Assembly: GCA_963701025.1 (NCBI GenBank)
Contig: OY969557.1
Coordinates: 640,090 to 704,089 of the forward strand
Length of the DNA: 64,000 bases
Source of the DNA: an uncultured bacterium
Lineage (GTDB): Bacteria; Patescibacteriota; Minisyncoccia; Phycocordibacterales; PALSA-1337
Direction: 5' to 3'
Shown here: piece after piece, positions 5,851 to 16,965 of the stretch
Numbering within the stretch: the stretch's first letter is position 1
Layout of the letters: every line of letters begins with the position of its first letter
The notes under the pieces: generated by a model
Database searches by the model: none
What the model was told of the DNA's origin: nothing
The model's input: only the letters and a program-made list of their open reading frames with translations
Program-made: the position numbers and the translations under genes

Positions 5851-7677
5851 ATGGACAAGCAACAGATACGCAACATAGCCATCATCGCTCACGTTGACCA
5901 TGGCAAGACCACCTTGACGGACGCCATCATGGCCCAGTGCGGCCACGGGGACGAGGGCTCAATGGACTCGAACGCGCTAGAACAAGAGCGCGGCATCACC
6001 ATTTACGCCAAGAATACTTCGGTCAATTACAAGGGCACGAAGATCAACATAGTGGATACGCCGGGCCACGCGGATTTCGGCTCGGAGGTGGAGCGCGTCC
6101 TGCGTTCTATCGACACCGTCCTCCTCGTCGTGGACGCCCAGGAAGGCCCGATGCCGCAGACGCGCTTCGTATTGAAAAAGTCCCTCGAACTCGGCCTGAA
6201 CCCGATCGTCATCATCAACAAGATAGACAAACCCGCGGCGAACCCGATGCGCGTGCACGATGAGATACTGGAGCTATTCATCGAGCTCGGCGCACATGAC
6301 AAACAAATAGATTTTCCGACCGTCTACGCCATCGGTCGTCAGGGTATAGCAAAGATGAAGCTCACTGATGATTCCAAAGATTTGACCCCGCTTCTCGATA
6401 CTATATTGAGCCATGTGCCACCGGCCAATACGCCGGAACAGTCGAAACTGCCTCTGGCCGCCCAGGTTTTCAACCTTGGTTATGACAATTTTCTCGGTCG
6501 TCTGGCCGCGTGCCGCATATACGACGGCGTCATCCGTGACGGACAAGAAGTATTCGTCAAACAGATCGGCAGCGCCACGACCAAAGGCAAGCTGACCAAG
6601 CTTTTCACCTATGAGGGCAAGAAGCGAGTCGAGATCCCGGAAGCCTTCGCCGGCGACATCGTCATGGTCGCTGGCCTACCCGACATATATATCGGAGAGA
6701 CTATCACCGACAATGAGGTCTCGCCGGCATTGCCCGCCATCAAAATCGACGAGCCGACCATCAGCCTCGATTTCCTGGTCAACAATTCTCCCTTTGCCGG
6801 CAGGGAAGGCAGGTTCGTCACCGGCCGTCAGATCCGCGAGCGCTTGGAAAAGGAGCTCGAGGTCAACGTCGGCCTCAAGGTCGATTTTTCCGCCAGTGAA
6901 TTCTTCAAAGTCTATGGCCGCGGCGAGCTCCACGTGGCCATTCTCCTCGAGAACATGCGCCGCGAAGGGTATGAGCTCCAGGTCTCCCAGCCGCAGGTCA
7001 TTTTTAAGAAGGAGAAAGGAGAAGGGAGTGTGGAGAATGGAAAGGAAAAAATTCTCGAGCCGTTCGAAGAGCTGACCATCGACATTCCCGAAGCGTATTC
7101 CGGCGCCGTCATCGAGAAGCTCGGCAAGCGCAAAGCCATCATGACCGACATGAAGACCAAGGACGGCCATTCGCGCATGCTCTTCGAGATCCCGACCCGC
7201 GGATTACTCGGCTACCGCAACGCATTCACCATCGACACCAAAGGCGAGGGCATATTGGCCAGTCGTTTCACCGAATTCAAGCCTTACGCAGGCGAGATAG
7301 AAAAGCGCGAGACGGGCTCCATGACTTCCATGGCTTCCGGAAAGACTCTTGGCTTCTCGCTCTGGAATCTCCAGGATCGCGGCCGCCTGTTCGTCAGACC
7401 GGCCGTGGAAGTCTATGAGGGCATGGTCATAGGCGACACCGCCAAAGGCGATGATCTAGACGTCAACCCCACCAAGGGCAAACAGCTGTCCAATATGCGC
7501 TCGTCCGGCAAGGATGAGGCTCTCATGCTCGTGCCGCCGTACGAATTGACCATCGAGCGCGGCCTCGAGCTCATGCGTGAAGATGAGTACTTGGAAATCA
7601 CGCCAAAGAGCGTGCGCTTGCGCAAGAAGTTTTTGACCGAATTGGACAGGGCCAAGTCAAAGAGGAAGGATTTGTAA
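5851..7677 (+). CDS. typA: Translational GTPase TypA/BipA
   Basis: G1 AHVDHGKTTL, G3 DTPGHADF, G4 NKID, and collinear EF-G-like domains II/III/V across 608 aa. Diagnostic for TypA/BipA. Confidence 0.92.
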   Translation: MDKQQIRNIAIIAHVDHGKTTLTDAIMAQCGHGDEGSMDSNALEQERGITIYAKNTSVNYKGTKINIVDTPGHADFGSEVERVLRSIDTVLLVVDAQEGPMPQTRFVLKKSLELGLNPIVIINKIDKPAANPMRVHDEILELFIELGAHDKQIDFPTVYAIGRQGIAKMKLTDDSKDLTPLLDTILSHVPPANTPEQSKLPLAAQVFNLGYDNFLGRLAACRIYDGVIRDGQEVFVKQIGSATTKGKLTKLFTYEGKKRVEIPEAFAGDIVMVAGLPDIYIGETITDNEVSPALPAIKIDEPTISLDFLVNNSPFAGREGRFVTGRQIRERLEKELEVNVGLKVDFSASEFFKVYGRGELHVAILLENMRREGYELQVSQPQVIFKKEKGEGSVENGKEKILEPFEELTIDIPEAYSGAVIEKLGKRKAIMTDMKTKDGHSRMLFEIPTRGLLGYRNAFTIDTKGEGILASRFTEFKPYAGEIEKRETGSMTSMASGKTLGFSLWNLQDRGRLFVRPAVEVYEGMVIGDTAKGDDLDVNPTKGKQLSNMRSSGKDEALMLVPPYELTIERGLELMREDEYLEITPKSVRLRKKFLTELDRAKSKRKDL

Positions 7678-8078
7678 TTCAGTTGCGGGTCAAATGGTGG
7701 AAATGGGCCACGAAGTTTGGTTGGTTTGAAGTTCGGCACTTTAGTCAACTAAAGTGGAATAAAAAAGCCCCGCGCGCGAGCGAGAGGTCTCGGAACACAC
7801 CAAGGCTATTCAGAATGGCGCGACACCCACAATATCGGGCCTATTCGGTTTACATGATATTGCCTGTATCCATAGAGGCCGCCGCCGATGATGATCACTG
7901 CCACCAGTATTATGATTGCTTTCATAAACCAAATTTTTTTGTTCTCTCTACCGATTGCTGGCAGAGTCGCCTTTTCAAAGGGCATTGTTTACCGCATGTT
8001 TGCTGTTTAAAAACAGACTAGCATAAAAAGGAGACTTGTCAAGTACCATTCACAAGTATTAGCTGATACAATTCGCTC

Positions 8079-8327
8079 ATGATTCAAGACTTTCTTACAT
8101 CGAACCTCAACAAGGCTGTCTATGAGATGATAGACGGCGATAAGCGGTTTTACGGAGAGATAAAGAGTTTGCGCGGCGTATGGGCTGTCGGTAAAACCCT
8201 TGAAGAATGCCGTCTCAATCTTATGACTGCAATAGAAAGCTGGCTTGTGTTTCGTCTGAAAAGGAATCTGGCGATACCTAATTTCAAAATCCGTGGCAAA
8301 CAACTGCCAGTGAGTAAATATGCCTAG
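8079..8327 (+). CDS. hicB: HicB-family (UPF0150) antitoxin-like protein
   Basis: FYGEIKSLRGVWAVGKTLEECRLNLMTAIESWL matches the HicB N-terminal RNase H-like fold signature (F.A.IPELPGC...G.TLEEA..N..EAI..WL). No C-terminal DNA-binding domain. Confidence 0.6.
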   Translation: MIQDFLTSNLNKAVYEMIDGDKRFYGEIKSLRGVWAVGKTLEECRLNLMTAIESWLVFRLKRNLAIPNFKIRGKQLPVSKYA

Positions 8328-8541
8328 ATTGTACGCAGTTTCTTGGGGAACTTTTGTCAAGAAGATGAGATTTTTGGGTTGGAGCGGTCCAAGTCAGGAA
8401 GGTAGGCATCCAGTGATGGCGAGGGGTGATGTGTCGGTGATAATACCCAACCCTCATCGAAAAGATATCGGTATAGATTTGCTAGTTAGGATATTAAGAC
8501 GGGCGGGAATATCTAGAGGTGAGTGGTTGGGGGGAAAATAG
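8320..8541 (+). CDS. hicA: HicA-family mRNA interferase toxin-like protein
   Basis: KKMRFLGWSGP...GRHPVMARGD.SVIIPNPHRKDIGIDLLVRILRRAGIS follows the HicA dsRBD-like pattern (L...GW.....GSHH.F.HP......VP.H..KDL..G.L..IL.QAGL). Overlaps hicB by 8 nt, so the two are translationally coupled. Confidence 0.55.
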   Translation: MPRLYAVSWGTFVKKMRFLGWSGPSQEGRHPVMARGDVSVIIPNPHRKDIGIDLLVRILRRAGISRGEWLGGK

Positions 8542-8570
8542 ATCAGATGCGATAGTATTTCCTTCCTCGC

Positions 8571-9545
8571 TTATTTCCAATGCGTCTTTATGTATTCCTG
8601 CGCCTCGCTCATGGAGAAAGGCTGGGTCGAATTGCCGACGCGGACGAAGAATTCCTCTTTATTATCGGGGCCTTGAAGATACGCCGGTTTATGGCTCTCA
8701 CGGACATTCACCATGCATATGTCTCGCCCTTCTATGGATTCGAACGCGATGCTGACGTATTTGGCGAATGAGAGCCCGATGAGAGTCTTTATGAGCATGT
8801 TCACGTGATTTTCAAAGCCGTCGCGGTTCTTCTTTGGCAGGGCGTTATAATCTTTTTCCAGCCCGGCGATCGTGCTATTGTCCCCGACTCCTATCAATAG
8901 AGTTCCGCCGTCGGCATTCAGAAAACCGACGATGGTCTTCAGGACCATGCGTTCCATTTCCTTGCTGACCTCGCCCTTACGGATGTCATAACGCAAAGTC
9001 TCCTTGAATTCCAGGAATAGGCCTTCGCCCCGCTCGATCAGGGCTTTTGCGTCATGAGTGACCAATCTTCCTGAAGCCGCTTGCACCGACTGCTTGACGA
9101 TGTGCAGGTATTCCTCGAAATTACCGATATTCTTGAGCTTGGTAGTCCGGCCGTTCGCGTGCTCGAGTATGATGGTGCCGTGATACATCATGCGTGACAG
9201 TGGCGATTGATAGAGCTCGACAGAGGTCACGTCGGAAAGGCTTACCGCCTTGCGCCTCCGGAAGAAAAGACCGGATTTTCGAATGATCTCTTTTTCATAT
9301 ATTTCGTAATGAGAGAAGTACCAGTCGAGGAAGAGTAGGAGGATATAGACCAGTTGGAAGAGCGAAAAAGATAGTACCAGGAACACGTGGAAAGTGATAT
9401 ACATGTGTATCGGCCAGGAATTATAAAGAGCCTCGTAGTTTTCGGCGAATTTCGCGAGATAGATGAAGGCTGCCGCCAGAAATTCCATCACCAGGACGTT
9501 TCGGATGAAGACCAGCGGTCCCTCTTTTACGACGATGCGGCGCAT
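8571..9545 (-). CDS. membrane-anchored bPH_2 (DUF304/YdbT-like) domain protein fused to an AlbA_2 / Schlafen-like putative DNA-binding domain
   Basis: N-terminus has 3 TM helices then KSGLFFRRRKAVSLSDVTSVELYQSPLSRMMYHGTIILE (bPH_2 signature). C-terminus has EGLFLEFKETL...KTIVGFLNADGGTLLIGVGDNSTIAGL, which is the AlbA_2 / Schlafen-type divergent AAA core. Confidence 0.55.
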   Translation of the reverse strand: MRRIVVKEGPLVFIRNVLVMEFLAAAFIYLAKFAENYEALYNSWPIHMYITFHVFLVLSFSLFQLVYILLLFLDWYFSHYEIYEKEIIRKSGLFFRRRKAVSLSDVTSVELYQSPLSRMMYHGTIILEHANGRTTKLKNIGNFEEYLHIVKQSVQAASGRLVTHDAKALIERGEGLFLEFKETLRYDIRKGEVSKEMERMVLKTIVGFLNADGGTLLIGVGDNSTIAGLEKDYNALPKKNRDGFENHVNMLIKTLIGLSFAKYVSIAFESIEGRDICMVNVRESHKPAYLQGPDNKEEFFVRVGNSTQPFSMSEAQEYIKTHWK

Positions 9546-9873
9546 GCTCTTATAGTATCACGGCCTTCGACTTTCCGGCGCGTCCTTTTCCTTGACTGCG
9601 CCGTCGTTTTCGCCTACCATCAAGCCAGTTTCGGTTCCTCACCCGTGTTGCGGCCTGAAGGAGGAAATACTTGGACTACCTACTTGTGAAGTCTTTTTCC
9701 CCAAGATAAGCACTTCAAAAAAGGTCGTACACAAACAAGGCCGCAGCACTTCAATTTCGAGTCCGATCTCAAATCAAAGGCGCTCCCAGTCGAGCGCCTT
9801 TTCTCATGGCGCGTTCCAGCGGCACGCATAAATCTTGATTATTCATCGGCTCCGTGATAAGCTCACCCTCACC

Positions 9874-10359
9874 ATGGCAACCAAAGTCGTCTCTCCCGTC
9901 AACGTCGAACACCGCGCCGCGCTGGACATCCGTCCCGGCGATACGGTCCGCGTCTGGCAAAAAGTCCAGGAAGACAAGGGCAAATTCCGCCTGCAGGCCT
10001 TCGAGGGCCTAGTCCTCGCCAGGAAGCACGGCCGCGAAGCCGGCGGCACTTTCACCGTGCGCAAAGTCATCGACGGCATCGGCGTCGAGCGCATCTTCCC
10101 CCTGTATTCGCCCATGATCGACGAGGTCGAGATGGTGCGCCGTTCCAAGGTCCGCCGGGCCAAGCTTTATTTCGTCCGCCGCAAAGCCGCCAAGGAGATC
10201 CGGCACCAGATGCGCCGCATCATGGCGGCAAAGTACGAAGAGGAGGCTCCGCCAGCTGGCGGACCAGCGGTCGCGAGTGTTGTTCCTACTGCCGCTCCGG
10301 CTGACGCTTCCGCCGCGGTCATTGCGGAGGCGCCCAAAGCCGAGACTACGAAAAAATAA
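9874..10359 (+). CDS. rplS: 50S ribosomal protein L19 with Ala/Pro-rich C-terminal extension
   Basis: [26 protein letters not shown]....FTVRK...[27 protein letters not shown] is the L19 signature. Start set at MATKVV; the ORF track starts 39 nt earlier. Confidence 0.85.
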
Positions 10360-10398: not shown

Positions 10399-10482
10399 GC
10401 GCGGGTGGCGAAACTGGTAGACGTTTACGCTTGAGGTGCGTAAGCCCTTACGGGCGTGGAGGTTCGATTCCTCTCCCGCGCA
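10399..10482 (+). tRNA. tRNA-Leu (anticodon GAG), long variable arm
   Basis: Acceptor GCGCGGG/CCCGCGC, D-arm TGGCGAAACTGGTAGACG, anticodon stem TACGC/GCGTA with loop TTGAGGT, extra arm, T-arm GGAGG-TTCGATT-CCTCT. Confidence 0.8.
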
Positions 10483-10575
10483 CATGTGATTCTGGCTCCC
10501 ATACTCCGCTTCGCTCCGTTTGGGAGCTTCGCTCGGACTGAAAGTCCAAACGAGCTTGTCCTTTCATCCTCGCTC

Positions 10576-10646
10576 GCTCCCATAGTTTAATGGATAGAAC
10601 GCGAGCCTCCGAAGTTCGCGGTCCAGGTTCGATTCCTGGTGGGAGC
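10576..10646 (+). tRNA. tRNA-Arg (anticodon CCG), copy 1
   Basis: GCTCCCA TA GTTT AATGGATA GAAC G CGAGC CTCCGAA GTTCG CGGTC CAGG TTCGATT CCTGG TGGGAGC A. Confidence 0.8.
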
Positions 10647-10758
10647 ACATGTGATTCTGGCTCCCATACTCCGCTTCGCTCCCATACTCCGCTTCGCTCC
10701 GTTTGGGAGCTTCGCTCGGACTGAAAGTCCAAACGAGCTTGTCCTTTCATCCTCGCTC

Positions 10759-10830
10759 GCTCCCATAGTTTAATGGATAGAACACGAGCCTCCGAAGTTC
10801 GCGGTCCAGGTTCGATTCCTGGTGGGAGCA
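10759..10830 (+). tRNA. tRNA-Arg (anticodon CCG), copy 2 (one substitution in D-arm/position 26)
   Basis: Same cloverleaf as copy 1 with GAACACGAGCC in place of GAACGCGAGCC. Preceded by a duplicated spacer. Confidence 0.8.
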
Positions 10831-11100
10831 CAAATTCGCGAAAAACTCGGAATCGCCCGAAAAAGGCGAAAGCACATCACAATGCGGAGGGCGGGGCGGC
10901 ATTCCTCCCCAGACCCCTCCTGCCGCCCCGCCCGCTTCATTGTTGGCGTTTTTGGGGATTTCGGACACGAAGGCGAAGGGTGCACGAGGCGAAAAAACGA
11001 GGGCGCGGTCGCGGAGGAGTGGGTTCGAACCGACCTTTTGGAAAAATTCCCGAATTTTCATCTGATCATCGCTCCTCGCCAAAATACCGGCTTGTTTACA
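10831..11100. repeat. GC-rich structured repeat, module P1, copy A (abuts 3' end of tRNA-Arg)
   Basis: About 95% identical to the reverse complement of 13893-14100. Contains a long imperfect hairpin GCGGAGGGCGGGGCGGCA-loop-TGCCGCCCCGCCCGC. The 10773..11117 and 10822..11109 ORFs inside it are treated as spurious. Confidence 0.6.
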
Positions 11101-11171: not shown

Positions 11172-12387
11172 TCAAAATCTGCTTTTCGGTAGACGAGCTT
11201 GTTTTTGGTAGTCTTGATATTCTTCCAGCGTCAAAGCGTTCTCAAGATAAGCGGTCATAAGTTTGTCGAGCTTGGCATCAACAGCCGTGACTTCAGCATT
11301 CACTTTTTGAATTTGGTCTTTTGAGGAATTGTTGTCTTCAGCTTTCTCTTTCTCAACCTCGGCAATGAGCCAATCGGCCACAGCATCAGACAACGATACT
11401 TTCTCCAGTTCCGTTTTGATCATATCGGTCATAGCCTCCTCGCGGACATACTTTTGCGAGCATGGTCCCTTCCTTTTGGTACATCGCAAGTAGTTATGGC
11501 CTTTCTGCGTCTCGGCGGTGATGGAACAGCCGCATTCGCCGCACTTGAATAGTCCGCGATATACATACGGTTTCAAACCACCACCGTGCTGAGGTTTGCT
11601 TTTTCTGCGTCATCATCTCCTGGCAAGTGTCAAAAAGCTTCTTCGTGATGATAGGCTCATGCTTACCTTCGTAAAACTCGCCGCCCACGTACATGAGTCC
11701 ATGGTACAGGGTATTTTTGAGAAGAGATTGATAGTTGGAAATGGAAAGCTCTTTTCCCGTATGGCTTCTTAAGCCAAGAGTGCCCATGACCTTCTTCAAT
11801 CCAGAGAGGGTGTAGTTGCCGGAGCCGTATGCTTCAAACATTTTCCTAATAAGCGGAGCTCTATCAGGATCGACAATGATCGATTTGCTTTTCTTGTCCC
11901 ACAGATATCCCATCGGAGCTTTATGCGGCCAGATGCCATTCTTCAATTTCTGACGATAACTGCGTTTGATATTCTCCGAGAGGTTGTCGACAAAATATTT
12001 ACTCTGGCCGAAGGCAATGGAGAGCATGAATTTGCCCTGCGGAGTTGCATCAAACCAGAATGTCGGGAACTTGAGATCCGTAATCATGCCGGTATCCACG
12101 AGATATATCACCTTACCTCCATCAACCGAGTTGCGAGCTAAACGATCTGGATGCCATGCGAGGATACCAGAAGCCTCACCGGCCTCTATACGCTCCAACA
12201 TCTCCGCGAATACAGGCCTGCCCGGTACTTTCGCCGTTTGTTTCTCGACGAAAATATCAACGACCTCCAGTTGCTCTTTTTTGGCGAGCTCGCGCAGCTC
12301 GGAGAGCTGGTCGGCAAGCGATCTCACTTGCCGATCCTCGGTGTCGGTAGACTTTCTGGTATAAATAAAATATTTTTTCTCACTCAT
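11172..12387 (-). pseudogene. large serine recombinase (resolvase catalytic domain, recombinase domain, zinc ribbon, coiled-coil), interrupted by a frameshift
   Basis: ORF 11494..12387 has the N-terminal YTRKSTD..Q..SL..Q resolvase motif with catalytic Ser plus a recombinase domain. ORF 11172..11576 has the zinc ribbon (KPYVYRGLFKCGECGCS...YLRC) and a coiled-coil. The frames switch at an A5 run (cagaaaaagc, about 11590-11600). Confidence 0.75.
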
Positions 12388-13051: not shown

Positions 13052-13635
13052 TTCCAAGGAAACCCCGCATGAGGAAGACGCATGGCTTCCGAAATGCGGG
13101 GATGAATTGGTCCATCTGCGTATCGCCTCCGGAGGAGGCGACATGGTACGCTAAAGGTTCCATGAGGACCCGAAGCTTAAACCACTCGGTATATCAGACT
13201 CAATATCACATTGTCTGGGGCACGAAGTATCGCAGGAAGTACCTGAAGGACTATGTAAACACCGAATTCAGGCTGGCCTGCTGGGAAGTAGTGAAGAAAT
13301 ATCCCACGCTCTTCATACATACGGTAAACACGGACAACGATCATATCCACCTCCAGATCGAGATACCACCGAATATGTCTGTGGCTGCCGTCGTCAAGGC
13401 ACTTAAGATCGAATCGAGCGTGAGGCTCAAGAAACGATTCAAATTCATCAGGGAGATGTACATCGACGGCAGCATCTGGAGCGTGGGGTATTTTGTCTCC
13501 ACCATCGGCCTAAACGAAACTCAAATCAAGAATTACATACAATACCAAGGCAAGAAGGACCTCGGCCACACCCTCCGCATACGCTTCGGGTCCTCGTGAC
13601 CCTAAAAGGAAACCCCGCATGAAATGCGGGGAGGA
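13052..13635 (+). mobile_element. IS200/IS605-family insertion sequence (tnpA only), with subterminal hairpins
   Basis: Left end AAGGAAACCCCGCATG...CATGCGGGG is a compound hairpin (13063-13101). Right end AAGGAAACCCCGCATGAAATGCGGGG is a perfect 8-bp hairpin (13613-13631). Both ends share the AAGGAAACCCCGCATG sequence and bracket a Y1 transposase gene. Confidence 0.65.
13162..13599 (+). CDS. tnpA: IS200/IS605-family transposase TnpA (HUH Y1 transposase)
   Basis: YHIVWGTKYRRKYL, the HUH motif DHIHLQIEIPP, and the SIWSVGYFVSTIG region with catalytic Tyr. About 145 aa, typical TnpA size. Confidence 0.8.
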   Translation: MRTRSLNHSVYQTQYHIVWGTKYRRKYLKDYVNTEFRLACWEVVKKYPTLFIHTVNTDNDHIHLQIEIPPNMSVAAVVKALKIESSVRLKKRFKFIREMYIDGSIWSVGYFVSTIGLNETQIKNYIQYQGKKDLGHTLRIRFGSS

Positions 13636-13649
13636 GGTCATTATACTTA

Positions 13650-14300
13650 AAATTATTTCATAACACACGTACCGCCGAGAAGCGGTCGACTTCCGCTTCT
13701 CCTCACGGACTTTTGTTCGCGCCCGGCGGATGTCGGTGCGGCGGAGCACCCCACGGTCGCCCAAAAGCGACGGTGGAAGGTGCGAGAGCCGTACGGACAG
13801 ACGCTCCGGGCGCGCCACAGGCTCTGTGGAAGCGGAAGTGGGCCGCTTCGAGCCACTGCGATGATTGCGATCTGCGTTTGCGATGAAAGATAAATAAGCC
13901 GGTGAGAATCCGACTCCTCCGCGACCGCGCCCTCGTTTTTTCGCCTCGTGCACCCTTCGCCTTCGTTCCGGAAATCCCCAAAAACGCCAACAAGGATGCG
14001 GGCGGGGCGGCAGGAGGGGTCTGGGGAGGAATGCCGCCCCGCCCTCCGCATTGTGATTTGCTTTCGTCTTTTTCGGGCGATTCCGAGTTTTTCGCGAATT
14101 TGTGCCGATTCCTGAACAAAGTTCGAACCTTTTTCGCCGAAAATCCGACATGAATGGTTGCGCCTTCGCTCTGCTCGGCGCGGTGAAAGGGCGGACGGAG
14201 GACTGGGGGTGTGGGGGAAGGACTCCGTCCGCCCTTCCTCTTCGTTTTCGCGCGCCGCCGTGCCGGTTTTTTCGGGCGGGGGCGCTGAAATCTTATCCAC
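13650..14300. repeat. composite GC-rich structured repeat, copy B (modules H + P1 + P2)
   Basis: H module at 13677-13852 is bounded by hairpins GAGAAGCGG-TCGACTT-CCGCTTCTC and GAAGCGG-AAGTGGG-CCGCTTC. P1 at 13893-14100 matches the reverse complement of 10831-11060. P2 at 14100-14290 contains the perfect 12-bp hairpin GGGCGGACGGAG...CTCCGTCCGCCC and matches the reverse complement of 23171-23395. Three overlapping minus-strand ORFs in all three frames are taken as GC artefacts. Confidence 0.6.
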
Positions 14301-14383: not shown

Positions 14384-14602
14384 ATGAATCAAGATCAAAA
14401 AAGAGAACGATTTAAACGCTTAGGAGTACAGCGTACGAACGCTGTTTTACAGAAGCTAAAAGTGCTTGGCAATTGTTCGAATAGAAGCGCTTATAACTAT
14501 ACCGAGGAAGAAATCAATAAAATCTTTTTAGAGGTTGAACGCCGGGTTCGTGAGACCAAAGCAAAATTCCACTTTCCTAAGAATAAAGAATTTAAACTAT
14601 GA
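14384..14602 (+). CDS. small basic protein, translationally coupled to downstream GHKL ATPase
   Basis: 72 aa and Lys/Arg-rich. Its stop overlaps the next ATG (ATGA). Begins a sharply low-GC islet immediately after the GC-rich repeat. Confidence 0.45.
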   Translation: MNQDQKRERFKRLGVQRTNAVLQKLKVLGNCSNRSAYNYTEEEINKIFLEVERRVRETKAKFHFPKNKEFKL

Positions 14603-16965
14603 AAAATGAGGATATTAAGAATCTTGCTCTTGCATTAGTTAAGGCAGATACAGAGAAAGAGGTTGTTAAAGTCTTAAAAGATTTTTATCTTTGGGATGAC
14701 CAAAAATCTTGGAAGGAAGTTGATCAAAGCGCAGGAAACTGGTCAACAATCGGGAACCAACAAAGTGCGCCCGACACTGCACTTGTCGAGAAGATAATTA
14801 ATTCGGTCGATGCAGTATTAACACGGGAATGTCTAAGGGAAGGCATAGACCCCAAAAGTGACGCGGCACCTAAAAGTATCGTAGAAGCTCAAAAAAGATA
14901 TTTTGGAATCCATAACGGAAAACTTTCTAGTATTGATGCCAATATGAGAGCGAGTATCGCGGAGAATATTTTTCTTGTCGCTACTGGCGATAAGACAAAT
15001 CCCTCCTACTCAATAATTGACTTAGGAGAAGGTCAATCACCGGAGTCTTTTTCTGATACCTTTCTGTCTCTGAATAGAGGAAATAAAAGTAATGTTCAAT
15101 TTGTACAAGGAAAGTTCGGAATGGGCGGTACGGGAGTTTTCAGATTTGGCAGTCCGGAACATAACCTTCAATTAATAATTTCTAAAAAAGATCCCTCTAT
15201 TAAGTTTGGTAAGAAAAGCGAACAATGGGGGATGACCGTCATTAGACGTATTCCTCCGACTGGACAAATGCGAAGTTCAATTTTTACATATCTTGCTCCA
15301 AATAACAGCGTTCTCTCTTTTACTGCACAATCCCTACCTCTTTTGCCGGGAAAACACCCCAATGCTTACTCGAATCAGCTTTCGTGGGGGTCATTTATAA
15401 AGATCTATGAGTATGATCTCGTCGGCCTTAAAAGTAACGTACGATTTGATTTGTTTTATCGTCTATCATTGCTTTTGCCAAATATAGCTTTACCAATAAC
15501 TCTTTGTGAGCGAAGAGATTATAACGACAAAGATGGTAAAACGAGGGATATGAAGATTACCATGTCTGGATTAAGTGTTCGTCTTGACGAAGACAAAAGA
15601 GATAATCTTGAAGAGGATTTTCCCAGCACAGGTGAATTAAGTGTAAAAGGTCAGAGAATGGATTATTCAATATATGCTTTTAAAAAAGATCGCAGGAGGA
15701 CTTATTCAGGAAATGAAGGCGTTGTGTTTACTGTAAATGGTCAGGCTCATGGCTTTTTACCAAAAACATTTTTTGAACGCAAGGCAGTTGGCATGTCGTA
15801 TCTTTCCGATAGCATCCTTATTCTCATTGACTGTTCGAAGATTGACAGAAGAAGACAGGAAGATTTATTTATGAACAGCCGTGATCGTCTTAGCGGCGGA
15901 CCACTTCAAAGTGAAATTGAACAGCAATTAGAGGAAATCATTAAAAATCACCAAGGCCTCCGGGCATTAAGAGAGAAGAGACGCAGAGAAGATATTGAGA
16001 ATAAATTACAAGATTCAAGACCGTTGGCGGAAGTTCTCGAAAACATAATAAAGAAATCTCCATCTCTATCAAGTCTATTTACGCAAGGAGTAAGGATAAA
16101 AAATCCTTTCAATCTTGCCGGTGCAACGGAAAATGGGAAGTTTAAGAGTAAAAAATTCCCGACTTATTTTGAGCTGACGAAGAAATATCCAGCTGAAAAA
16201 CCAAAATCATGCCCTATTAACAACAGGAAGTTTCGTATTCAATTTGAGACTGATGCGGAGAATGATTATTTCAATCGAGATAAAGAGCCGGGTGGTATAA
16301 CTGTTAAGATAAACGGGGGCACTATTGAAGACTATTCGCTTAATCTATGGAATGGATTGGCAACTCTGAATATTGAGATTCCCAATACGGTAAAAATTGG
16401 GGATATTCTCTGTTTTTCAACAGAAGTAATAGATCATACACGAGTAGAGCCATTTTCTAACGAATTTTGTATAAAAATTGAAGAATCTCAAAAAGACGGG
16501 GAAGGAAAAAATGGTGATAGGAAAAAATCTTCAGGAAAGAAATCTGGCGAGGGAAGGAAAAAGCCCACATATCTTGATATTCCGAATGCTTGGGAAGTAC
16601 GTAGAAATGAATGGGACAAGCACAGCTTTGATGACAAGAGTGCTTTGAAGGTTGTAGATGCGGGGGAAGAGTCCGGGTACGATTTTTATATCAACATGGA
16701 TAATGTCTACCTCCAGATGGAAATCAAGGAGAATATAAAGGTTGACCCCAAGCTTCTGGAAGCAAGATTTAAGTATGGAATGGTTTTGCTAGGTATCTCG
16801 CTACTTGATTTTGAAGAGAAGAATAAGAAAACAGAAAGTCAATCCTCAAGAGAAAATGATAACATGTCAATCTTTGATAAAATTTTACTTTTTTCGAGAG
16901 CAATTTCCCCGACACTGCTCCCGATGATTGCCTCACTTGGAGATTTACAGCTAGGAACAGAGTAG
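14599..16965 (+). CDS. large GHKL/Bergerat-fold ATPase (Hsp90/MORC/sacsin-like HATPase) with long uncharacterised C-terminal region
   Basis: N-box VEKIINSVDAVL (E..N..DA), G1 box IIDLGEGQS (D.G.G), G2 box GKFGMGGTGVF. 788 aa with a Lys-rich low-complexity segment near residue 640. Low-GC islet. Confidence 0.6.
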   Translation: MKNEDIKNLALALVKADTEKEVVKVLKDFYLWDDQKSWKEVDQSAGNWSTIGNQQSAPDTALVEKIINSVDAVLTRECLREGIDPKSDAAPKSIVEAQKRYFGIHNGKLSSIDANMRASIAENIFLVATGDKTNPSYSIIDLGEGQSPESFSDTFLSLNRGNKSNVQFVQGKFGMGGTGVFRFGSPEHNLQLIISKKDPSIKFGKKSEQWGMTVIRRIPPTGQMRSSIFTYLAPNNSVLSFTAQSLPLLPGKHPNAYSNQLSWGSFIKIYEYDLVGLKSNVRFDLFYRLSLLLPNIALPITLCERRDYNDKDGKTRDMKITMSGLSVRLDEDKRDNLEEDFPSTGELSVKGQRMDYSIYAFKKDRRRTYSGNEGVVFTVNGQAHGFLPKTFFERKAVGMSYLSDSILILIDCSKIDRRRQEDLFMNSRDRLSGGPLQSEIEQQLEEIIKNHQGLRALREKRRREDIENKLQDSRPLAEVLENIIKKSPSLSSLFTQGVRIKNPFNLAGATENGKFKSKKFPTYFELTKKYPAEKPKSCPINNRKFRIQFETDAENDYFNRDKEPGGITVKINGGTIEDYSLNLWNGLATLNIEIPNTVKIGDILCFSTEVIDHTRVEPFSNEFCIKIEESQKDGEGKNGDRKKSSGKKSGEGRKKPTYLDIPNAWEVRRNEWDKHSFDDKSALKVVDAGEESGYDFYINMDNVYLQMEIKENIKVDPKLLEARFKYGMVLLGISLLDFEEKNKKTESQSSRENDNMSIFDKILLFSRAISPTLLPMIASLGDLQLGTE

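Follow-up and report, generated by a model that had tools for sequence, protein, structure and literature searches.

A predicted membrane-anchored Schlafen nuclease, conserved in Patescibacteria, and its probably unrelated HicAB neighbour

The interval described here lies at positions 8079-9545 of a 64,000-nucleotide (nt) stretch of contig OY969557.1 (assembly GCA_963701025.1), from an uncultured bacterium of the Patescibacteriota; the whole of this stretch is called the window below. The interval holds a hicB-like and a hicA-like gene and, on the opposite strand, a gene for a protein of 324 amino acids (aa) with an N-terminal transmembrane (TM) hairpin, a bacterial pleckstrin homology (bPH) domain and a C-terminal Schlafen (Slfn) domain. 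We consider it probable that these are two unrelated units, a HicAB cassette and a conserved, vertically inherited gene for a predicted membrane-anchored Schlafen RNase. The features of the interval are:

8079-8327, + strand: hicB-like antitoxin gene, 82 aa (Pfam UPF0150, PF21748; PDB 2dsy)
8320-8541, + strand: hicA-like toxin gene, 73 aa (Pfam HicA_toxin, PF07927; alignments to 4p78 HicA3 and 1whz)
8571-9545, - strand: 2TM-bPH-Schlafen gene, 324 aa (open reading frame (ORF), Pfam and AlphaFold2 (AF2) model)
9315-9518, - strand: N-terminal membrane hairpin, residues 10-77 (hydropathy, AF2 helices and translation)
9072-9311, - strand: bPH_2 domain, YdbS-like, residues 79-158
8577-9050, - strand: single-lobe Schlafen/AlbA_2 nuclease domain, residues 166-323
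9003-9026, - strand: predicted catalytic motif EGLFLEFK, E174-x4-E179-x-K181 (translation)

The three ORFs are present as an earlier note on this DNA had described them, hicB coming first and overlapping hicA by 8 nt (8320-8327). The 324-aa gene does follow closely behind hicA on the opposite strand, the two being convergent and separated by 29 nt. The GC content of the region had been called intermediate, which is correct but uninformative, the Slfn gene having 50% GC. At third codon positions (GC3) the Slfn gene has a value of 0.66, near that of bipA and rplS (both 0.74), with hicB at 0.48 and hicA at 0.43. A promoter and terminator scan returned matches at chance level only.

The 324-aa protein carries bPH_2 at residues 75-145 (Pfam, E 5.5e-11) and SLFN_AlbA_2 at residues 174-310 (E 7e-17), so that both domains proposed in the earlier note are borne out; the FLEFKETL stretch quoted there is also present, and overlaps the catalytic EGLFLEFK. 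The PF04326 match reaches 62.4 bits against a gathering score of 25.3 and spans profile positions 1-117 of 118, and PF03703 (bPH_2) likewise scores above gathering, with the TM hairpin in front of it as in YdbS-like proteins. Three TM helices had been claimed, whereas hydropathy and AF2 agree on two, TM1 at residues 10-31 and TM2 at residues 52-77. In the alignment-based AF2 model (mean pLDDT 84.4) the hairpin is followed by a PH beta-sandwich with its C-terminal helix (79-158), a short linker of low confidence and the Schlafen domain (166-323). The Pfam assignments are borne out by fold searches, and the predicted fold of the C-terminal domain is like that of a Schlafen C-lobe, resembling SLFN11/12/13/5 and SAMD9. 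R2, R3 and K7 precede TM1, the loop at residues 32-51 is short and acidic, and an RRRK cluster follows TM2. By the positive-inside rule the predicted topology is N-in, loop-out, C-in, and given this distribution of charges the PH and nuclease domains should face the cytoplasm.

A search of 5.8 billion proteins returned 685 at E<=1e-3, the best 120 of which are 305-337 aa long, at least 63% identical and equipped with both Pfam domains, and 654 proteins were retrieved at E<=1e-20 with a family profile. When 1.84 billion representatives of 50%-identity clusters were scanned exhaustively with HMMER, about 70 further full-length cluster representatives came to light, down to 28% identity, and a search with a closer alignment located 421 relatives on metagenome contigs. 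Where members have a stated source it is a metagenome-assembled genome of Patescibacteria, Paceibacterota or Taylorbacteria; taxonomy is nearly absent for the divergent cluster members. Database names vary, from 'putative DNA binding' and 'RNA-binding domain-containing protein' at NCBI to 'membrane protein YdbS with pleckstrin-like domain' at JGI. Judged by these matches, the 2TM-bPH-Slfn proteins are a large Patescibacteria family of constant length (~325 aa), and no one-off fusion.

In an alignment of 58 diverse full-length members of the family, E174 and K181 do not vary at all, and conservation of E179 reaches at least 90%. The invariant positions (E174, K181, N210, G214, G219, D222, G228, D232, D242, G257, G304, N305 and Y318) fall nearly all within the nuclease domain, and the catalytic motif is also invariant or near-invariant in 80 relatives of other architecture. 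The alignments show an intact Ex4ExK motif, evidently kept under purifying selection. Human SLFN11 and the bacterial protein RorSlfn5 both require Ex4(E/D)xK to cleave tRNA (PMC13056530), and we infer that the 324-aa protein would be an active endoribonuclease whose substrate, as for other Schlafens, is most likely tRNA. Identity in the alignment of 58 members is about 24% over the N-terminal half and 43% over the nuclease. A sister subfamily of 243-263 aa (P0163, P0170, P0186, P0192, P0196) has a homologous two-TM hairpin joined straight to the Slfn domain, with no bPH; because the hairpin and the nuclease are kept together there, what stays constant appears to be the membrane anchoring rather than the PH domain.

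The genomic setting of the Slfn gene was compared across 72 distinct loci (55-83% identity) drawn from genomes and metagenomes, with the neighbouring genes clustered; a scan of genome contigs with the single protein had given 11 loci. The neighbours are housekeeping genes. bipA/typA lies no more than four genes away in 26 of the 72 loci, and by tblastn it stands downstream of the Slfn gene in 27 loci, convergent every time. Also found in the 72 loci are hisS (18), truB (17), an RNase-H-like exonuclease (15), ddl (8), a two-receiver response regulator (8), pilB (7) and uvrC (5); rplS is another housekeeping neighbour, and Pfam adds RNA polymerase, tRNA synthetases, CTP synthase and similar proteins. 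The gene truB encodes tRNA pseudouridine-55 synthase. In 14 of 62 loci (for example L004/L005 7206-8975, L020, L022, L032 and L042) it immediately precedes the Slfn gene in the same orientation, at a distance of -4 to 82 nt except for one case of 245 nt, and in L007 (6001-7791) it lies immediately downstream with a gap of 15 nt. These arrangements suggest an operon pairing the predicted tRNase with an enzyme that modifies the tRNA T-loop. Within the 64-kb window there is no truB.

A clade at 39-40% identity has the order uvrB-uvrA-uvrC-ddl-Slfn, followed by a response regulator where the contig goes on, and the same arrangement occurs in part of the main clade. Two members at 31-32% identity lie among membrane and surface proteins. 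Separately, we observed that the relative at locus L100 (7300-11890; P0329, 32% identity), which is probably from outside the Patescibacteria, sits among genes for small membrane proteins (DUF1269, DUF308, Phage_holin_4_2-like), and only its Slfn domain scores in precomputed Pfam matches.

Pairwise identities of Slfn and BipA are correlated (Mantel r 0.50, reached by 0 of 2000 permutations), and those of Slfn with HisRS, TruB and the exonuclease more strongly so (r 0.62-0.74), HisRS against TruB giving 0.57. Over the same genome pairs mean identity is 63% for Slfn, 53% for TruB, 67% for HisRS, 71% for the exonuclease and 79% for BipA. This comparison led us to reject two descriptions of the gene, namely that it evolves only slightly faster than BipA and that it is a fast-diverging island, as L020 and L022 (BipA 99.5%, Slfn 83%) had seemed to suggest; nucleotide comparison of locus pairs found no divergence island at the Slfn gene, its identities being like those of neighbours other than bipA. 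The Slfn gene was thereby shown to evolve much like an average housekeeping gene. Its synteny and its co-divergence with its neighbours show a gene that, on this reading, is vertically inherited and core-like.

No such regularity attaches to the HicAB pair, whose link with the Slfn gene was implied by their adjacency in the earlier note. The part of the window that separates bipA from the Slfn gene consists of:

5851-7677, + strand: bipA, convergent to the Slfn gene
7678-8570, no strand assigned: variable junction between bipA and the Slfn gene (contents compared across loci)
7806-7985, - strand: ORF of 59 aa with one hydrophobic helix, between bipA and hicB

The 59-aa ORF has no counterpart outside this genome among 17 loci compared, and it is doubtful that it is coding. 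Counted from the Slfn side, homologues of this HicAB pair stand beside the Slfn gene in only 3 of the 72 loci, namely the window, L007 and L063, always between the Slfn gene and bipA. In nine loci the gap between bipA and the Slfn gene is shorter than 100 nt and the stop codons nearly abut; close relatives of the window's locus have the two stops abutting. Elsewhere the junction carries a PemK/MazF-like toxin (L036 9116-9643, with an ORF of the same cluster in L080), an HTH_31 protein, a DnaA_C-helix-turn-helix (HTH) protein, IS1595-like ORFs or small ORFs of no assigned family, and in L015 (7028-10414) a 3.4-kb insert holds ORFs that by eye resemble an IS1595-type transposase and a DnaJ-domain protein. 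The GC3 of hicBA (0.43-0.48) is unlike that of both flanking genes.

Locus L007 (5481-10654) is a mosaic: its Slfn protein is 83% and its rplS 87% identical to those of the window (positions 5851-10359 being compared), and against L063 its BipA and HicB are each 90% identical but its Slfn only 66%. From this mosaicism it seems that the cassette travels with the bipA flank and that the junction is a recombination breakpoint. A recent insertion of HicAB, which we had entertained, is too simple an account, since HicB tracks bipA at 90% between L007 and L063; the cassette would so be older, or move with the bipA flank. We conclude that HicAB is most simply regarded as independent cargo in a permissive, recombination-prone gap between convergent chromosomal genes.

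That HicAB and bPH-Slfn instead form one three-gene module, with HicAB for example regulating or backing up the membrane RNase, is extremely improbable in our view. It has in its favour the tight adjacency in the window (29 nt), the same placement in L063, where HicA lies 19 nt from a Slfn match only 63% identical, and the fact that HicA and Slfn are both RNases; yet the pair occurs at so few of the Slfn loci, the convergent genes would not be co-transcribed, truB intervenes between the Slfn gene and HicAB in L007, HicB follows the bipA side, other cargo including the MazF-like toxin occupies the same junction elsewhere, and the GC3 of hicBA sets it off from both neighbours.

The pair itself is, from its domain matches, an ordinary small type II toxin-antitoxin (TA) cassette. 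HicB (82 aa) matches Pfam UPF0150 PF21748 (E 3.8e-24) and Thermus TTHA0281 (2dsy, E 6e-15); UPF0150 covers residues 5-67, and HicB has no other Pfam match and no ribbon-helix-helix (RHH) or HTH DNA-binding extension, so that it can be classed as the short TTHA0281-like form. HicA (73 aa) passes the gathering score of HicA_toxin PF07927 with 33.4 bits against a cutoff of 27, and its His30 aligns with the GSH histidine of HicA3 (4p78), although the pairwise match is weak (E 0.44), as is the E-value of the alignment to 1whz. With known HicAB systems (Yersinia pestis HicA3B3, 4p78; the Thermus TTHA0281/TTHA1913 type) the pair shares the HicA_toxin domain with its conserved histidine, a UPF0150/HicB-fold partner and an overlapping bicistron. 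It differs from them in its antitoxin-first order, in its minimal HicB that lacks RHH or HTH, and in being a probable bystander to the adjoining gene.

A defence context for the locus, at which the earlier note had hinted, did not emerge. PADLOC matched none of the three proteins, the neighbours are housekeeping genes, and NCBIfam holds no model for the 324-aa protein. Among 146 representatives of the neighbour clusters, the recognisable PADLOC matches are two DNA methyltransferases; others, to the PsyrT, DpdF, PbeA, mad and PDC-S07 models, are of low count (2-3 members each) and uncertain meaning. No enrichment of defence genes among the Slfn neighbours was detected with PADLOC and Pfam. A pattern scan of 2.9 million viral contigs gave one partial match, against the 421 relatives in metagenomes. 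Homologues never near toxin-antitoxin or defence genes had been named beforehand as what would count against the proposal, and for the most part this is what we found: they seldom lie close to TA genes and practically never close to defence genes.

Prokaryotic Schlafens have recently been described as pSlfn1-55, for example the Ig-like-Slfn protein RorSlfn5 and the DUF262-Slfn protein EcoSlfn7 (Perez Taboada et al., Nat Microbiol 2026, PMC13056530), in a survey that covered RefSeq complete genomes only. The 324-aa protein shares with these, and with Cash, the single-lobe PF04326 domain with its Ex4(E/D)xK motif, and the fusion of the nuclease to a different non-catalytic module within one polypeptide. 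Its partner, however, is the two-TM hairpin with bPH_2, a candidate sensor module by which the nuclease would be anchored to the membrane, and its gene lies outside the defence islands that mark the described pSlfn systems, among housekeeping neighbours whose order is conserved and with which it co-diverges. The main texts of PMC13056530 and PMC13462974 mention neither a membrane fusion nor a PH fusion, and the word Patescibacteria is absent from both main texts. A literature search returned no paper joining 'Schlafen' and 'Patescibacteria'. We therefore rate the membrane-anchored bPH-Schlafen arrangement as a new architectural variant of prokaryotic Schlafens, as set apart by those main-text descriptions.

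The N-terminal 160 residues have the layout of YdbS/YdbT-type bPH_2 proteins (DUF304, COG3402), a TM hairpin followed by one cytoplasmic bPH_2. YdbS/YdbT-like proteins have no enzymatic domain and have been linked to bacteriocin export or immunity (PMC8657885), whereas the module here carries a nuclease. In the sister subfamily, moreover, the bPH is dropped. Membrane-anchored housekeeping endoribonucleases are otherwise represented by RNase Y of Firmicutes and by membrane-associated RNase E. The protein described here shares with both an N-terminal membrane anchor, a cytoplasmic endoribonuclease (predicted in our case) and a core-gene-like distribution, but the catalytic folds are unrelated (HD/KH or S1/DNase I-like, as against Schlafen) and the analogy is a functional one only.

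How such a protein might work can be sketched from its parts. The two-helix hairpin, with its N terminus inside, would be the membrane anchor for two cytoplasmic domains, the YdbS-like bPH and the single-lobe Schlafen RNase, and the hairpin and bPH module together would keep the protein on the inner side of the membrane and determine its oligomeric state. To clamp and cut tRNA, Schlafen domains would need to pair or oligomerise, for which SLFN11 dimers, RorSlfn5 oligomers and Cash filaments are precedents (PMC13056530, PMC13462974), and soluble bacterial PH domains of the related PF08000 form oligomeric rings (PMC2817789). If pairing is required and the membrane sets the oligomeric state, a signal at the level of the membrane could gate RNA cleavage: a change in the membrane would switch on the cleavage of tRNA or other RNA and throttle translation. 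Such a signal might come from envelope stress, from a loss of membrane potential, from pilus or host-contact events, or from the entry of phage.

The synteny of the Slfn gene, its rate of evolution and its linkage with truB favour a resident physiological role, such as the control of stress or translation, over fixed innate immunity. Several considerations weigh against the reading that we prefer. The RNase activity and its substrate are carried over from what is known of other Schlafens (PMC13056530, PMC13462974), the inter-domain arrangement of the AF2 model is uncertain (pTM 0.54), and an immune gene that was fixed and vertically inherited would give identical signals of synteny. Sequence change is faster in the N-terminal half than in the nuclease, a pattern shared by the sensor modules of defence proteins, and the most similar Slfn domains found elsewhere (40-50% identity) occur in fusions with TIR, STAND NTPases, GmrSD_N/DUF262 and BrxL/Lon, as well as with SBP_bac_3 and CBS. 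Because the first four of these partners are typical immune sensor or partner domains, the Slfn lineage would seem to be largely that of a conflict-system effector, and their fusions keep an immune reading alive. In its explicit form the protein would be a single-gene anti-phage abortive-infection system, in which the TM-bPH part senses membrane perturbation or DNA injection by phage and releases the Schlafen tRNase to stop translation, and which has become fixed in small genomes of the Candidate Phyla Radiation with few other defences. The faster-evolving N-terminal module and the nearest fusions (TIR, STAND, GmrSD_N and BrxL among them) speak for such a system, as do the intact catalytic motif, the bacterial Schlafen fusions shown by experiment to be anti-phage tRNases made of a sensor and a nuclease effector (PMC13056530), the role of Cash as a type III CRISPR effector (PMC13462974), and the 30% of pSlfn genes that lie outside known defence islands (PMC13056530). 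We nonetheless consider it rather unlikely here, given the lack of PADLOC matches and of defence neighbours, a housekeeping synteny held from 83% down to 39% identity, a divergence rate and co-divergence like those of hisS and truB with no divergence island, and a constant protein length.

A further alternative dispenses with catalysis, the C-terminal domain being a non-catalytic AlbA-like binder of nucleic acid that fastens DNA or RNA at the membrane, as might serve to take up DNA or to anchor the nucleoid. It would fit the NCBI names that members bear, the binding of nucleic acid by AlbA_2 domains of SAMD9 and DIP2311 type, and the presence in several loci of type IV pilus or competence-type genes (pilB/T2SSE, pilM) a few kb away. 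An Ex4ExK triad that is strict or nearly so down to 28% identity, together with invariant D222, D232 and D242, is hard to explain without catalysis, however, and the predicted topology places the domain in the cytoplasm and not on the uptake face; we regard this alternative as very unlikely.

Elsewhere in the window, downstream of rplS, several features resemble remnants of mobile DNA at a tRNA cluster (10399-10832), and none of them is common to related loci. The cluster consists of tRNA-Leu(GAG) followed by two copies of tRNA-Arg(CCG) (10576-10648 and 10759-10831), each within one unit of a 155-nt tandem repeat (10495-10649 and 10678-10832; 99% identity, period 183 nt); Rfam detected only tRNAs in the window. 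A large serine recombinase (11175-12387, - strand) is divided between two ORFs that overlap in different frames, with Resolvase and Recombinase domains at 11497-12387 and Zn_ribbon_recom at 11175-11576; it is probably what a frameshift has left of an element that had inserted at the tRNA cluster. At 13069-13596 there is a gene for a Y1 transposase of IS200 type. Two GC-rich hairpin pairs of nearly identical sequence (ACAATGCGGAGGGCGGGGCGGCA and its complement), at 10879-10943 and 13990-14054 and thus 3.1 kb apart, bracket the recombinase remnant and the transposase gene and could be IS200/IS605-like ends or repetitive extragenic palindrome (REP)-like elements. Beyond them a 788-aa ORF without a Pfam match (14599-16962, + strand) lies in a stretch of 37-42% GC; the core genes flanking it have 55-62% GC, and the window as a whole ranges from 34% to 62%.

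In summary, the reading that we find probable, of a HicAB cassette and an unrelated, conserved Schlafen gene, extends the picture of bacterial Schlafens as phage-triggered tRNases that owe their specificity to a fused domain: it would add YdbS-like membrane anchoring, and a housekeeping-like conservation across a large clade of Patescibacteria, often directly after truB. The HicAB case itself illustrates how adjacency in a single genome can hint at a system that comparative data dissolve, and the Slfn protein offers a concrete case for probing the function of bacterial PH domains. The conservation may mean one of two things, either an innate immune gene that has been fixed in tiny genomes with few other defences, or Schlafen tRNases with non-immune roles, at which the 30% of pSlfn genes outside defence islands also hint. 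As a tentative possibility, the 2TM-(bPH)-Schlafen family may be a non-immune, core, membrane-tethered tRNase of the Patescibacteria, often co-transcribed with truB, that couples envelope state or host and pilus contact to tRNA cleavage and the control of translation. If true, this would constitute the first housekeeping role for a prokaryotic Schlafen nuclease, in episymbionts with reduced genomes.

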